Shown one piece after another: positions 4,224 to 62,790 of a stretch of DNA of 64,000 nucleotides (the stretch's first letter is position 1; the number at the start of each line of letters is the position of its first letter). The notes under the pieces are model-generated. The model did no database searches. It saw only the letters and a list, made by a program, of their open reading frames with translations, and was not told where the DNA came from. The position numbers and the translations under genes are program-made. Location of the stretch: the NCBI RefSeq assembly GCF_006345805.1, contig NC_043018.1:2914001-2978000 (forward strand). The letters are read 5' to 3'. The DNA comes from Octopus sinensis. Lineage: Eukaryota.

Positions 4224-4454
4224 AGCGGCGAACTGGCAGAAACGTTAGCACGCTGGGTGAAATGCATAGCCGTATTTCGTCTATCTTTACGTTCTGAGTT
4301 CAAATTCCGCCGAGGTCGACTTTGCCTTTCATCCTTTCGGGGTCGAGAAATAAAGTACCAGTTACGTACTGGGGTCGATATAATCGACTTAATCCGTTTG
4401 TCTGTCCTTATTTGTCCTCTCTGTGTTTAGCTCCTTGTGGGTAGTAAAGAAATA
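4224..4454 (+). mobile_element. SINE family B, full length with TSD
   Basis: GCGGCGAACTGGCAGAAACGTTAGC...GAGTTCAAATTCC...GGTCGACTTTGCCTTTCATCC core; flanked by the 12-bp direct repeat GGTTTGCATGAA (4212-4223 and 4455-4466). Confidence 0.95.
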
Positions 4455-5900: not shown

Positions 5901-7844
5901 TGGGTCCGCTTCACGAAACACGCCTTATAGGCAGTCGTGGAACTACCCCAGATAAAGTGATAAAGACCTGCTTCTTATTTAGTTAATTAGCCTCTTGAAA
6001 ATTTCTTTAAATATAATTTAATATATTTTTAAGAAAATGTGGTTATCAAGATTCTGTTAATATCGAAGATTTCAACTACCCGATGCAATGAGAAATATTG
6101 TTGCAATACTGGCGTTCTCTGCTTTATGGCTACAGCAGGCTTGTCACGGTAGTCTTTGCTGGAGAGGGTTTGTGAGGTCAAAGCGGGAAAGCTACCTTTA
6201 TTTCTTTTAGCCTATTCTTTGGTATGCTGATTGCTGGATAATAAAACCAGTTCACACAGAGCACACATGACAGTGATCATCTAAAATTCTTCAGATTTTT
6301 CTTACGGACTTCCAAGAATTTTACTACAATAAAATAAAATATTATATTACTCTTCAATTTTAACTCTGCTAATGGCATGTTCCAAGACATTAACGAATGC
6401 TTAATAAAAATCTGTTACCATATATTCGAATATCGAAACTAGATCTGTTCCTTAGATGTCTAGGAATCTGCATTTATTAGTACATGAAAGTCATTAAAAT
6501 AAATAGCAGAAACTCATTAGTTTTGATTCCATCAACGAAATATAACGTTTCCAACTTTCACAGAAATTAAGAGAATGTTTCAGCTTTACTGCCGAGCAAA
6601 GGCAATTTGTGTATATAATTACGTTTTTACCAATTACTCATTTCTCATTTCTGATATTACAGCTTGGTAGGCAACATGCCAAAGTATGTGCTGGTTTCTC
6701 TGACACATAAAAAGATGAAAATCTTAAAACGCCGATCGTGTGCCAAATAGCTATTTATCGCTCCATACTATTGACATCTCTGACTTTTCAGAATATCTTG
6801 GAATCCATGCTTTGTTGTATACTTTACAACATGAATTATCTTAGAAATCTAACACATCTTCTCTTAGTGCCAAATGCGAAATTTTCTAAGGCCGTCTTCT
6901 GCACAAAATTTTAGAGTTAAGTGCATGCTAATATAATTAAAATAGTGGGAGAAATGTGAATTTTATTGAACAGAAATTACACATTTTTGCAGAAGAAAAC
7001 TATTACTGTTAATGACAATTCTTTCCAAGCAAGACTAGGAGAGGCATCAGTAAAACAATTGCTTTGACAATCAAATGAAGACACAGAAGGTCGTATAGTT
7101 AGTAAGAATGGTGTGAAAGTTTATTATAATTCACCTTCCCTCGAGCTGCTCAGAAAGAATACATCAATATAGACTCACCGATTTTAGCAGTTTGAAAGAA
7201 CGATATTGAAATATAAATCAGAAGAGATAGCTTCTGCTTGAAGAAGTTATTGCTAAGTACAGATTAATATACGTATGGTTGGGAGACAAAACGGATTTAC
7301 TTTAATGGAACTAGAGGTTTAAAGATGTTCTGAGACATCACCAGACAACACATGGTTGTGAAGTGACGTTTTATTGAAATATATATTGCGATGAAAATTA
7401 AGAAAGTCAAGGAAGTTTAATCCGTGTGGCATCACCATCCGAAAAATCTTTACAAGATCTGCACCTGCAACTATTATTCCATGCCAACGTTCATAGAAAT
7501 GAATGATAAAATCAATTGCCGGGGGTTGCAGAGATACTAACGGTGAAAGGCAGAGAGGGTGAGAGCTTGGAAACAGTAGAACTGCCTTAGCAGCATGCGA
7601 GAAATTTTAAGTCGTGTCAAAATATTAAAGTTAATGCAAAGTTCCTGAGAATATTCATTCACACACACACACACAGAGGCAAAAGCGCGCGCACGCACAC
7701 ACACATACATACACACACGGATGGACGCACGAACACATGCACATAGATATCTGTCTCATGTATTTCATATGAAAATACGTTTTGTTATTTATGATATCAC
7801 CGAAAATAATTGAGTCAAGTAATAAAAACGACGCTTTAGCTTTC

Positions 7845-19651: not shown

Positions 19652-19918
19652 TAGATAGATATATATATATATATAGCGTGATAGATTGATAGATGGAGAA
19701 ATATATATATCTCCATCTATCAATCTATTATACTATCTACCTACCTATATTTCTATCTTTCCATCTCCGTTGTCATGGAAACTCGCCCCCCAAAAACAAA
19801 AACAATATTCTCTTCTACCCCAATAACTCTTTTATATAAATGAACAAGCTGTTTGTACATTCACAAAATTTTATTTGACTAATGTATATATATATATGTA
19901 TGTATATATATATAATAT

Positions 19919-19987
<69 letters not shown>

Positions 19988-20078
19988 TTAAATCCACATC
20001 TTTACCTATATATCTACCTTCTTTATTATGTTATCACTTGATATGCAAAATTATGTATTAATGGAAAACCTCTATTAA

Positions 20079-20162
20079 TGGCTGATGAGTGCTCAGCCTT
20101 TTAAAACTGTTGTAATACTTACAACACTTAATAAAATGATGTAGTGCGAAACGATCGTACCA
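20079..20162 (+). ncRNA. Type I hammerhead ribozyme, canonical core
   Basis: TGG | CTGATGA | GTGCT...AGTGC | GAA | AC-GATC-GT | A | CCA. Stem I TGG/CCA; stem II closed by G-C and extended by the hairpin TGTTGTAA/TTACAACA; palindromic stem III ACGATCGT; GUA triplet, predicted cut after 20159. Confidence 0.85.
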
Positions 20163-20195
20163 AAATACCGAAGTTCTTCTTGTTGCTTATTTTGA

Positions 20196-20266
<71 letters not shown>

Positions 20267-20573
20267 TATAATGTACTTTTGCAACATTATGTGTTTTTTT
20301 ATGTTGACGGATTACTGATAAAAGTAAGTTCATAATTGACTGGCAGAGGCAACTTCAAAAATTTCACTTAGCTCCGTACTCTTTGTTAATTCCTCTAAAA
20401 ATATCTTATTTACTTTTGTATTTTTCTGTTAGCGGCTTTTTTCAGGTTCCTCTTCTGGTTCTTTGATTTACTGACAATTCTTATTCACTTTCTGCCCGTC
20501 GTATTAAAAATATAATTTCCGTTTCCGTTTATTACCTTCTTCACCCGTGTATTTATTGTATACGTATATAACC

Positions 20574-21160
20574 ATGCCTAGAAGGAAAGTGTCAAATTTG
20601 TTTACAATGTCAAGGTCAGCCAAAAGAATATCTCTGTCCAGGGAAAGAGAGAAGCATACCAAGAAACGAACTGTCTGTGCACTACAAAACCAGAGCATCT
20701 CAAAGTAATGAACAGAGGTATGCACAGCTGACAAGGAGGATCTAGACTGCAGAACGAAGAGTGGTTGCAACAACTCAGAGAAGCAACTTCTATGATGCAG
20801 CTTTTAATTACGATCCAGAAGTCGATTATGCAGATGACAATATAGTCTCCATTGGTGCGATGACAAATGAGTGTTTACATTGTGAAGCAGGGAAATGGGT
20901 TGGAGACACACCTGCACTGTTCTTCAGTGGAGGAAAGTTTAAACTCCCTGCAATCCCCCAACGTCCAGAGATATTGAAAAACCTATTTTCATCAACTGAC
21001 CTTGATCCCAAGCACTACCAAAACAAAATTAGACAATACAACGCTATACTACAGATGACATCATTTGGAACCACAAGAGATTTAACTGAGCCAGATTAAT
21101 GCAAACCTTCAACATCCAAGGTTAGATTTATCATCGGATTGACTCTCTAATACCTTATCA
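20574..21160 (+). mobile_element. Helitron RepHel N-terminal fragment (Zn-finger region)
   Basis: MPRRKVSNL... then AAFNYDPEVDY...IGAMTNECLHCEAGKW..DTP...SGGKFKLP...IRQYNAILQMTSFG and, after a frameshift, TFNIQG*IYHRIDSL: recalled animal Helitron N-terminal motifs. Confidence 0.88.
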
Positions 21161-22769
21161 AAGGAATCACCAAAATCAGTCTTTCATTATTTATAATCTC
21201 TACCTGTTTTTTTGGTTACGAAATAAGCTACACAAAACGGTCTCATTCAAATTTGCATTATTGAAAATACTTCACATATGGAAACAGGCTCTGCATGGTA
21301 TGTCTACAACTGTAGAAAACTATATGTATGGCGTAGTTTGAATTAGCAGCTGGGCTCTGAATCCAGAAATTATACACAATAGAAAGCATTTCTTAATGAG
21401 ATGAACGTCATCGTTTTGCCTTAGCTCAGCTTTATTCTTATAAATTTATGAAAGTGATTTTACAGTTGTAATCATGTATTAGGACTGCTTTCGCAAGTGT
21501 TAAGAGTCTAACACATTGTTTACCGCTGGTGAATATAGCATCAAGGGGTGAGTATCGCTCCCAAGTTAAATTAAGTGACGATCACGCATATCTAATTATT
21601 AATATTAAATTTTTTCTCTTCTTGAAAGATTTTGCCTTTGATAGCCGTGTATAGCGCCATTCTATCCTCCTTTGGAATATTCAGCGGAACACAACTCGAG
21701 ACACAGGTTCATAAAACTATAAAGCTTAATTCAGAATTCTATGAAGTTACTTTATTAAAATTAGAGAAATAAAGAATTATATCACAGGCTAGAACATATC
21801 AGGTTTCTACATTTTTTCGTCGCAAATTTTTAATTCTTTAACAGTAAAGAAAATAGAGAAGAATTTAAGAGCGTTATATATAATTTAGTATAAAATTGGT
21901 TGTATAATGTCCTTCCTTATTGACTTGCAAGATGTAAGTTAATCGTTAACGATACTTCACATTTCTGACATGTGGCTACATCATTCCGTCTTTCTCCGTT
22001 TACTATTGAGGCACAATGCAGTTAAATTTACAAAGACATTTCCTTCTTGTATTGGAAAACGATAAACACAGTAGCTGATTTCGAAAGAATGAGTGCAAGC
22101 AACATTCAACTGGAGTAGCAGTAATTCTATAGAACAATGACGGTTCAAAATGGAGTGGTTCTGTTTTGTATATTTATACGAGGCGATAGCAAAAGTCGAG
22201 ATCGATAAAAGCGTACGAATATTAACACCGGGATGGGAGTAATGTTCTGCGGATGTAATTTTAATTTGTAAAGCAGATCTTTAATTGAGACTGTCTATGG
22301 TTATTAAATAATTAGAAGAAATACATAATGCAAATGTTTGAAAGTTATGTAATAGCACAACCTCTAGGTTTCTTACTCTTGATTCGGTTTACCAAAGCCA
22401 AAAGACGAATGTTGCTGTACAGTAAAATGCTTCAATGTCTGAAAAAAGTTAGCAAATCTGCTATGACAGGAGTCAGACTCAAATTACCAACTATTTAACT
22501 CGGGTACCTTTTTGCATGACTTGAAGCCTTTCATAGCCCCTGCGACTCTAATGTATTACATATAAATGCGTGGTGAAGAGGTCGGTGCATGCCGTGGATA
22601 ATAGCGTGAAATCTATTCAGGTATCGTAGACGAATCATTGTAGATGATTATACGCAATTTCTTAGAACATGAGTTTATAAAAATATTTCCACACGGTCAA
22701 GATTTTGATATATGTTATATACGTAATTAACTAGCAGCTCTTTGATTATGGTAGATTCACCATGATAGA

Positions 22770-26881: not shown

Positions 26882-26914
<33 letters not shown>

Positions 26915-27058
26915 ACTACCACTCACACAAACGCATACAAAAACATACGTGTGTGTGTGTATATGTGTGTATACTTATGTCTGTGCATCAACTCACACAG
27001 TATGTTTATGTCTTTCTAACCACTTAATTTTCCTACATCTCTTCCTTTTTCTCTCTTC

Positions 27059-27098
<40 letters not shown>

Positions 27099-27242
27099 AC
27101 TACCACTCACACAAACGCATACAAAAACATACGTGTGTGTGTGTATATGTGTGTATACTTATGTCTGTGCATCAACTCACACAGTATGTTTATGTCTTTC
27201 TAACCACTTAATTTTCCTACATCTCTTCCTTTTTCTCTCTTC

Positions 27243-27273
<31 letters not shown>

Positions 27274-27690
27274 CTTCCCTTTCACTCATTATCTCTTTCT
27301 CTCACTACCACATTATTATATATATATATACACACATACGTGAGTGTGTGTAAATATATACTTGCACACTCCCCCTATATCACTCTAACTCTATTTCCCT
27401 ATTTCTTTCCATTTCATTCATTCTTCCCCTCCCTCCCCCTCACTCTCCTCCCCTCTCTGTCTCTCTCTCCCTCCCCTTCCCTTTCACTCATTATCTCTTT
27501 CTCTCACTACCACATTATATATATATATGCACACATACGTGAGTGTGTGTAAATATATACTTGCACAGCACCCCTACATCTCTCTAACTCTATTTCCCTA
27601 TTTCTTTCCATTTCACTCATTCTTCCTCTCCCTACCCCTCACTCTTCCCCACTCTTTGTCTCTCTCTCGCTCTCTCCCCATCTCTCTATC
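26882..27690. repeat. Four-unit tandem array (A,A',B,B'; periods 184 and about 200 bp) on a (CT)n scaffold
   Basis: Track ORFs at 26949 and 27133 start with identical sequence (period 184); second pair about 27275-27475 and 27476-27675; all units share TCTCTCACTACCAC...CATACGTG. Confidence 0.9.
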
Positions 27691-28154: not shown

Positions 28155-28735
28155 AGACGGTGACTGGCGGAATCGTTAGCACACCGGGCGAAATGCTTAG
28201 TAGTATTTCGTCTGCCGTTACGTTCTGAGTTCAAATTCCGCCGAGGTCCACTTTGCCTTCCATCCTTTCGTGGTCGATTAAATAAGTACCAGTTACGCAC
28301 TGGGGTCGATGTAATCGACTTAATCCGTTTGTCTGTCCTTGTTTGTCCCTTCTGTGTTTAGCCCCTTGTGGGTAGTAAAGAAATAAGTATTTCGTCTGCC
28401 GTTACGTTCTGAGTTCAAATTCCGCCGAGGTCCACTTTGCCTTTCATCCTTTCGTGGTCGATTAAATAAGTACAAGTTACGCACTGGGGTCGATGTAATC
28501 GACTTAATCCGTTTGTCTGTCCTTGTTTGTCCCTTCTGTGTTTAGCCCCTTGTGTGTAGTAAAGAAATAAGTATTTCGTCTGCCGTTACGTTCTGAGTTC
28601 AAATTCCGTCGAGGTCGACTTTGCCTTTCATCATTTGGAGAACGATAAATTACGTACCAGCTGTGTACTGGGATCGATTTAATCGGCTGGCCCCTCTCCA
28701 AAATATTCGGGCCTTCTACCGAGAGTAGAAAAGAA
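28155..28735 (+). mobile_element. Head-to-tail trimer of SINE family B
   Basis: GTATTTCGTCTGCCGTTACGTTCTGAGTTCAAATTCCG recurs at 28203, 28387 and 28571 (period 184); only the first unit has the 5' head; the third has a different tail. Confidence 0.93.
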
Positions 28736-54913: not shown

Positions 54914-55204
54914 TGGAAGCGCGATGGCCCAGTGGTTAGGGAAGCCGACTCGCGGTCGTAGGATCGCGGTTTCGATTCCCAGACCAAGTGTTGTGAGTGT
55001 TTATTGAGCGAAAACACCTAAAGCTCCACGAGGTGGTGGCGACCCCTGCTGTACCCTTTCGCCACAACTTTCTCTCACTCTTTCTTCTGTTGGCCCGCTC
55101 GTTTAGCCAGCGTCATTTGAAGGCTAAAACAATGCGAAACGCATTGTGACCGGCGATGTGTAGCAACATCTGATACCCTGGTCGGTCACGGTGATCACGG
55201 TGAT
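54914..55204 (+). mobile_element. SINE family C with a second tail type
   Basis: TGGCCCAGTGGTTAGGG..GACTCGCGGTCGTAGGATCGCGGTTTCGATTCCCAGACC head plus central domain; tail ends in (CACGGTGAT)2. Confidence 0.9.
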
Positions 55205-60787: not shown

Positions 60788-60970
60788 GCTGTCTAAAGTC
60801 TTTCAGTATGATGTATGGCCTATTTGCATCTATCTTTCTGTCAGTTTGAATGGTGAAGTTCTAGAGGAGTGAGATGTGATCATTTTCAAGCTCTAGGGTT
60901 GGTTTGTGTTCCCACCAGTTTTTATCAGGAGAGAATTCCAGGTTTTTGAAAATTACCCTGTGAATATATT
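60788..60970 (-). mobile_element. R4/Dong-like LINE fragment (RLE start)
   Basis: Minus strand YIHRVIFKNL...KNWWEHKP..LENDHISLL*NFTIQTDRKIDANRPYIILKDFRQ. Confidence 0.85.
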
Positions 60971-60979
60971 ATGCAGCTC

Positions 60980-61031
60980 TCGAACTCCGAATCTTAGGGT
61001 TAGTAGCCCGCGCTCTTAACCACTACGTCAT
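60980..61031 (-). mobile_element. tRNA-like head fragment
   Basis: Minus strand ATGACGTAGTGGTTAAGAGCGCGGGCTACTAACCCTAAGATTCGGAGTTCGA (A and B boxes); homologous to 61241-61290. Confidence 0.7.
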
Positions 61032-62407: not shown

Positions 62408-62790
62408 TGGAAGCACTCCGTCGGTTCCGACGACGAGGGTTCCGGTTGATCCGATCAACGGAACAGCCTGCTCGTGAAATTAACGTTCCAGTGGCTGAGC
62501 ACTCCACAGACACGAGTACCCTTAATGTAGTTCACGGGGATATTCAGCATGACACAGAGAGTGACAAGGCCGGCCCTTTGAAATAGAGGTAGAGCAGAAA
62601 CAGGAAGTAAGAGTGAGAGAAAGTTGTGGTGAAAGAGTACAGCAGGGATCACCAGCATCCCCTGCCGGAGCCTCGTGGAGCTTTAGGTGTTTTCGCTCAA
62701 TAAACACTCACAACGCCCGGTCTGGGAATCGAAACCGCGATCCTACGACCGCGAGTCCGCTGCCCTAACAACTAGGCCATTGCGCCTCCA
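62408..62790 (-). mobile_element. SINE family C, full length with TSD
   Basis: tRNA-like head GGAGGCGCAATGGCCTAG...GGTTTCGATTCCC on the minus strand; flanked by the 13-bp repeat CTAATGTTTAGTA (62395-62407 and 62791-62803). Confidence 0.95.

Follow-up and report, generated by a model that had tools for sequence, protein, structure and literature searches.

Organization of the Locus

The window, meaning the whole 64,000-nt stretch (64 kb) analysed here, belongs to the 2.7 Gb, microsatellite-rich genome of Octopus sinensis. Between two (TA)n arrays it contains a short island in which a hammerhead ribozyme motif can be read. The features, in positions of the window, are as follows.

19885-19987, no strand: (TA)n microsatellite, left flank of the insertion (repeat scan)
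19986-20200, plus strand: 3' end, almost certainly, of a Hydra-type Penelope-like element (PLE) pseudo-LTR (pLTR), 5'-truncated; 94% to positions 2589-2802 of locus L033 and to the L033 3' pLTR (genome comparison)
20079-20162, plus strand: type I hammerhead motif, stem I 20079-20081 / 20160-20162 (sequence read and covariation)
20082-20088, plus strand: core CUGAUGA (C3-A9; sequence read)
20089-20147, plus strand: stem II, 59 nt, with outer helix, internal loops and 8-bp apical hairpin at 20108-20126 (folding and covariation)
20093-20098, plus strand: UCAGCC; through the private C20098 it can form 6 bp with GGCUGA 20080-20085, a pairing that is predicted to tie up the core (folding and family comparison)
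20130-20135, plus strand: AATAAA, which is likely a poly(A) signal; its first letter lies 30 nt ahead of the predicted cut, and it is partly paired in the predicted stem II
20148-20159, plus strand: GAAA, stem III palindrome ACGAUCGU (20151-20158) and A17; predicted cut after 20159
20177-20193, plus strand: U/GU-rich tract conserved across subfamilies (alignment), a possible polyadenylation downstream element or part of the element terminus
20197-20270, no strand: (TA)n microsatellite; the copy ends at the shorter of two family 3' termini, at about +37 from the cut

All nucleotides of the conserved core, C3-A9, G12-A14, A15.1-U16.1 and H17, were read directly (CTGATGA 20082-20088, GAAA 20148-20151, GTA 20157-20159), as were stem I (TGG 20079-20081 / CCA 20160-20162), the closing pair G20089-C20147 of stem II, the arms of the 8-bp inner hairpin (20108-20115 / 20119-20126) and the stem III palindrome ACGATCGT at 20151-20158. 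The hammerhead motif is real, and its parts lie exactly where the initial annotation of this DNA had placed them, with (TA)n on both sides as it had described. The roughly 210-bp island delimited there also holds in its extent, about 19986-20200, which corresponds by comparison with L033 to the last ~213 bp of the pLTR. No second convincing hammerhead was found in the 64-kb window, where three other loose matches lacked stem I or II.

Abundance and Covariation of the Hammerhead Motif

The case for the hammerhead rests on comparison, because the scan with the Rfam hammerhead models, which had been proposed as a check, reported no hammerhead (0 among 34 matches at E ≤ 5 and 0 among 2 at E ≤ 10). 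This miss is probably due to the 59-nt stem II. The exact pattern CTGANGA-N45..75-GAAACGATCGTA occurs at 4397 places in the host genome versus 2 for the reversed control. With spacers of 45-75 nt, 4397 places carry stem III ACGATCGT and 15,607 carry ACANNTGT (controls 2 and 62), which amounts to approximately 20,000 long-stem-II motifs detected by exact patterns. A short-spacer form of the ACGATCGT pattern was found 1503 times (control 2), and a 30-nt pattern for the window's family and its nearest subfamilies 997 times (control 0). Moreover, similarity search with the island gave 1885 first-look candidates, the best 40 of which, when scored, provided at least 42 matches at 90-100% identity, which speaks against a chance motif.

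Covariation was analysed in 16 subfamily representatives, in all of which the core is invariant (16/16 rows). Paired cells reached 86.3% versus 76.6% when shuffled (0/500), and 11 of 22 pairs changed on both sides while slid controls paired at only 26-46%, values obtained with a shuffle that ignores kinship, on hand-picked rows sharing ancestry and with a structure drawn from the same sequences. Changes on both sides are distributed over stem I (3/3 pairs), outer stem II (4/5) and stem III (1/3). Of the whole fold, RNAalifold returned stem I and the apical hairpin only, and the MAFFT alignment was shifted in the middle of stem II.

Stem III changes as whole palindromes (ACGATCGT, ACAATTGT, ACATATGT, ACACGTGT and ACAGCTGT). 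Its two central letters, too close for pairing in cis, are complementary in 16/16 rows, and a pattern leaving those letters free returned CG, TA, AT or GC in 25 of 27 loci-level motifs. Since this centre is unpairable in one strand yet complementary, pairing between two RNAs is supported. Sequence comparison thus points to cleavage as a predicted dimer and agrees with the type I assignment and the short dimer-type stem III of the initial annotation. Such pairing between two RNAs has been proposed for PLE hammerheads (Cervera and de la Pena 2014, PMC4209133); that source describes the same type I fold with short stem I and palindromic stem III, predicted dimer cleavage and mostly solitary truncated copies. 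Of the 7 sequences folded as two unconstrained strands, 2 (L078 and L052) have the double hammerhead as their minimum free energy (MFE) structure; the other five, the window copy included, do not.

Identity of the Element

The island almost certainly derives from a Hydra-type Penelope-like retrotransposon, whose 3' end it represents; the copy is 5'-truncated and sits in (TA)n. In 28 of 29 other loci the common sequence runs on upstream of the island, over a variable length, and reaches the 3' UTR and ORF of an element with reverse transcriptase (RT) and GIY-YIG. The left end of the island is therefore a truncation point, and only the right end is a true element end. In L033, 288-bp direct repeats (2511-2798 and 7465-7752; 97.6%) enclose a disrupted ORF in which pieces of RT and of a C-terminal GIY-YIG can be recognized, giving the full copy the order pLTR, RT, C-terminal GIY-YIG, pLTR. 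This bears out the link to Penelope pLTRs made by the initial annotation; as for the solo pLTR that it offered as one reading, the island falls short of the full pLTR length, which is 288 bp in L033. L033 is 5.2 kb long with two insertions and ~4.4 kb without. The insertion at L033:3836-3986 is a ~150-bp repeat that is also present at 54929-55065 and 62626-62773 of the window, and that at L033:5186-5830 is a non-LTR-like coding fragment matching window 60790-60980.

Comparison of the RT piece with the host genome yielded 11,431 candidates, with open frames of up to 1124 aa among the best 150 scored, and in sister copies RT and GIY-YIG lie in a single open frame. Pfam returned below-threshold matches for the L033 pieces (RVT_1, E 0.05; GIY-YIG, E 0.0075) and nothing relevant for whole ORFs, and PDB comparison gave weak RT hints only. 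The motif RWK is found in L054 and DKT in L051, L052, L054 and L033; L051 and L033 read RWR and RWI. By-eye comparison with the published alignment located the CxCX5C linker and the C-terminal CxxC and CxH, with no CCHH; the third C is Y in L033. Insertion in (TA)n is the rule, 32 of 33 family-A instances running into a TA tract and one continuing into the ORF.

These characteristics correspond to the Hydra clade of C-terminal EN+ PLEs, which includes Hydra-1_Obim and Penelope-1_NV (Craig et al. 2021, PMC8557442): the same single ORF of RT and C-terminal GIY-YIG, RWK, DKT, CxCX5C, CxxC, CxH, no CCHH, a (TA)n target and a type I pLTR hammerhead. The elements described here differ in size. The clade is given as generally under 3 kb, stated as a tendency (PMC8557442), whereas L033 without insertions has ~4.4 kb, and the proteins, of ~950-1100 aa, are longer than the published Hydra proteins because of Asn-rich inserts. 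Further differences are the copy number, in the thousands, and a long branch in the RT tree. In that tree (85 rows, quick search, no non-Hydra outgroup, L064 left out and identical RT stretches collapsed) the host-genome elements form a single long-branch clade with SH-aLRT 100 beside 67 metagenome rows. The metagenome set is anchored to Hydra because the hammerhead and flanks of its member L181 are the same as the Penelope-1_NV row.

Two related sequences were also observed. In the public gene model P0013, annotated as an ankyrin-repeat protein, a stretch of ~200 aa shares 68% identity with the RT region of the element; the model is probably a chimeric annotation. The most frequent long-stem family (L104-L130, L239, L240; on C1) is another Hydra-type element with 46% RT identity, whose endonuclease linker appears to be without CxCX5C.

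The retrozyme monomer suggested by the initial annotation would be a non-autonomous unit of ~210 bp spreading via circular RNA. Its size is near that of metazoan non-LTR retrozymes, 220-240 bp in coral, which resemble the island in type I hammerhead and low-GC unit as well (PMC7229834), and a preprint derives retrozymes from pLTRs (10.64898/2026.07.22.740005). Metazoan retrozymes are, however, head-to-tail non-coding repeats (PMC7229834), whereas the island is the truncated end of a coding element. The variable upstream extension described above speaks against a monomer, and no head-to-tail array of a 210-bp unit was found among the 42 listed matches or in the window, although tandem arrays had been suggested as a thing to look for. 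The tandem repeats of 3.2 kb on C28 provide no support either, since they include the flanks and constitute a segmental array. A retrozyme is accordingly a highly improbable reading, and the truncated PLE end is retained in what follows.

3' Termini and Arrangement of Copies

Two 3' termini can be distinguished in family A. Nineteen of 33 instances stop near +37 (range +36 to +49) from the predicted cut, as does the window copy at about +37. In the other 14 the sequence goes on into a tail, which ends at +126 to +145 in 13 cases and in one continues into the ORF. This parallels the two RT start sites and the tail signature of PLEs reported in PMC11167929. Because both 3' ends lie past the cut, we infer that the inserted RNA had not been cut at the ribozyme site. 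Inverted neighbouring copies are present among the family loci, and partial tandem or inverted copies, 5' truncation and an optional tail are all seen in the family.

The segmental tandem array mentioned above (L031-L032, C28:14563001-14583000) has a period of ~3.2 kb and five units, each a truncated pLTR copy with its flanks; as a candidate for tandem PLEs it was ruled out, the flanks being repeated too. Furthermore, a hairpin GCTC-N5..35-GAGCA with a varying inner stem lies 27-57 nt past the cut in L161-L237 (for example L171:3807-3828 and L183:4940-4958). It occurs in 52 of 64 metagenome Hydra-type loci, uncollapsed to families (control 0/52). Located at the start of the tail, it may be a structure for RT binding or initiation; the tail of the window's clade is different.

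The Long Stem II and the State of the Window Copy

In the window's clade the stem II region measures 47-61 nt, and in other host-genome motifs up to 77 nt. The extra 8-bp hairpin of the initial annotation is present at 20108-20126; it is not separate, folding showing it to be the tip of one long interrupted stem II. The remark that this stem is unusual was well founded, given at most 26 nt in the 25 published Hydra families by a count made by eye (PMC8557442) and a range of 10-25 nt throughout the motifs that 64 of 78 metagenome loci with related RTs yielded. The hammerhead of Hydra-1_Obim is different and short (PMC8557442), and helix II has 6-8 bp in the PLE hammerheads of PMC4209133, in contrast to the long interrupted hairpin with a conserved hexamer found here. 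A precedent for a long loop II, of ~54 nt, exists in the spike-moss PLE-X1 rows of Craig's table (PMC8557442). The pLTR hammerheads of Hydra elements were already known; what is new is a stem II of 47-61 nt in such elements, and no report of long-stem-II hammerheads in octopus was found in the open-access literature.

Compared with the 31 other 59-nt copies of its family, the window copy is unique at 20098, 20127, 20165 and 20176. The change A20098C is private (0/31 other family copies) and in folding predictions extends a hairpin to 6 bp over the core. The active fold has -10.7 kcal/mol against an MFE of -20.9 kcal/mol, compared with -15.1 and -19.1 kcal/mol for L002, so that the gap is 10 kcal/mol in the window copy and 4 in L002. 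It is therefore doubtful that this copy still self-cleaves, as had been thought possible: A20098C is predicted to trap the core, and the copy is probably weak or dead, a decayed relic. Taken singly, it is an unremarkable, ordinary decayed fragment.

A Probable Poly(A)-Signal Hexamer within Stem II

Inside stem II lies a hexamer that went unmentioned in the initial annotation. Twenty loci were fetched by RT similarity alone, 16 of them had a detectable motif, and in all 16 stem II contains AATAAA or ATTAAA. These are the two strongest known poly(A) hexamers, and poly(A) cleavage takes place 10-30 nt after such a hexamer; in the window's clade the hexamer starts 23-32 nt before the predicted cut. 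Only position 2 of the hexamer column varies (A 12, T 4) while the neighbours vary freely, counts that are partly circular in being anchored on the hexamer, with F and K placed in the clade by resemblance. By composition, the chance of a hexamer in a single stem II is 2-25%. The hexamer is kept in a family only 63% identical in RT, where it is predicted to be unpaired in L060. Moreover, a U/GU tract 17-34 nt past the cut is conserved in the 16 rows, and AAUAAA/AUUAAA followed by a U/GU-rich tract is, at the level of sequence, the canonical layout of a poly(A) site. The stem II hexamer is thus probably a poly(A) signal. Searches of the open-access literature yielded no description of a poly(A) signal lying within a PLE hammerhead.

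A TG(T/C)A motif in the apical hairpin (L048-L112; window 20111-20119) is nearly invariant and precedes the hexamer by ~20 nt. UGUA is the CFIm site, and this exact form is present only in some subfamilies.

The metagenome relatives, which supply the independent test, were analysed as 29 families collapsed at 70% identity from 72 motifs with full flanks, a few of which may belong to co-contig elements. A hexamer starts at -1 to +9 from the cut in 13 of these 29 Hydra-type families (500 dinucleotide shuffles: mean 1.2, maximum 5) and lies nearby in 15 (shuffle mean 3.7, maximum 10); the remaining 14 have no canonical hexamer within the tested flanks. Upstream background windows of the same set contain AATAAA in 8 of 68 cases. 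In several families the predicted cut falls directly after the first A of the hexamer. Among the published Hydra families, 8 of 25 show a hexamer by eye in the listed 20-nt flanks (PMC8557442). Within the host genome, 32 of 46 motif clusters carry the true hexamer, compared with 22 for its reverse complement and 22 for the reversed form, so that these controls are common too, and approximately 14 of the 46 are without it in the region -90 to +45.

Alternatively, the island may be an ordinary Hydra PLE pLTR fragment that tolerates a lineage-specific expansion of stem II, with AWTAAA serving a structural or protein-binding role, be it in a tertiary contact or in binding a protein of the element itself. 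The 3' half of the hexamer is predicted to be paired in most subfamilies, so that structure could explain part of its conservation, and other letters of stem II (T45, G46, T50, T53) are invariant as well. The most frequent long-stem family, Hydra-type with 46% RT identity, is also without a stem II hexamer (0/16); it has AATAAA at +6 instead. The position relative to the cut varies among families (about -53, -44, -30, -1 to +9 and +20), which a fixed tertiary contact would disallow, and the hexamer switches precisely between the two strongest poly(A) forms. This explanation is regarded as rather unlikely, though it deserves more weight than the following one.

According to that further reading, the hexamer would be a TATA-like pLTR promoter element for the next tandem unit, with transcription starting ~30 nt further on, near the cut. 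The spacing of 23-32 nt would fit, and promoters do exist in PLE pLTRs (PMC2377424); the same source describes the Penelope promoter as TATA-less. TATAAA substitutes in 0 of 16 rows and appears in 1 of the 29 metagenome families, where AATAAA is the commonest flank hexamer (10/29). A promoter role is accordingly very unlikely, and a poly(A) signal is preferred.

A search for retro-copies polyadenylated downstream of the hexamer or of the cut had 0 matches, and such copies may simply be rare. Four contig sets compared with L033:2511-3150 showed few joints, each in single contigs, and no poly(A) loose end among the matches listed, contigs being unable to show ends.

Proposed Mechanism

The whole is best, and probably, explained by a PLE 3' end with a hammerhead that is predicted to cleave as a dimer and whose long stem II harbours a likely poly(A) signal. 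The comparisons show how the element is built, how many copies exist, that the stems covary and where the hexamer sits; from this we infer the following sequence of events. At the window locus, the RT-endonuclease of the element would have nicked a TA tract. Reverse transcription would then have been primed ~37 nt past the ribozyme cut, on a template RNA neither self-cleaved nor polyadenylated there, and halted after ~213 nt, leaving the window copy. For active members, the RNA's 3' end would have two exclusive fates. In the first, host cleavage and polyadenylation directed by the stem II AAUAAA/AUUAAA and the U/GU tract would occur at about the ribozyme site, with loss of the 3' strand of stem I. 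In the second, two transcripts would pair by the 8-bp palindrome and self-cleave, which would leave the hexamer and the downstream tract on different RNA pieces. When stem II folds, the hexamer would be masked in part, and read-through RNA, the template for insertion, would be favoured. Polyadenylation and self-cleavage would be mutually exclusive in each arrangement seen, whether the hexamer lies just 5' of stem I, inside stem II or at the cut.

Such folding-controlled competition between polyadenylation and self-cleavage is a tentative model. It is equally tentative that the Hydra clade in general has a poly(A) signal built into the hammerhead, at the cut or stem I in many animals and in a lengthened stem II here, the fold possibly acting as a switch among polyadenylated mRNA, self-cleaved RNA and read-through template. 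A fold opposing a poly(A) signal, in a repeat present at both ends of an element, is known from the HIV-1 poly(A) hairpin, which is non-catalytic. In the hammerhead of the CLEC2 3' UTR the ribozyme cut is likewise set against a poly(A) signal; CLEC2 is a host gene, and its signal follows downstream of a ribozyme that is split (PMC6765202), whereas here the hexamer is inside the ribozyme's own helix.

Why PLEs retain hammerheads is stated to be an open question in PMC8557442. According to PMC11167929, cleavage is dispensable for insertion in vitro and lizard RNA-seq contains no reads ending at the PLE hammerhead site. If the proposal is true, PLE hammerheads would act in 3'-end control even when they cut rarely, and it would also bear on how a repeat at both ends escapes premature termination. 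The clade-wide overlap of ribozyme and poly(A) signal offers a concrete and cheap test of a role in 3'-end choice, a lead worth testing. Furthermore, since ~20,000 long-stem motifs in one genome were missed by the Rfam models, ribozyme censuses of such genomes are likely low.

Two features in the surroundings of the island may be added. Broken reading frames at window 20570-21170 resemble by eye, as we presume, the N-terminal part of a Helitron Rep protein; if this is a Helitron, the (TA)n target lay in or adjoining that element. Tandem repeats with a period of 184-199 bp, unrelated to the element, occupy window 26882-27672 and 28202-28685.
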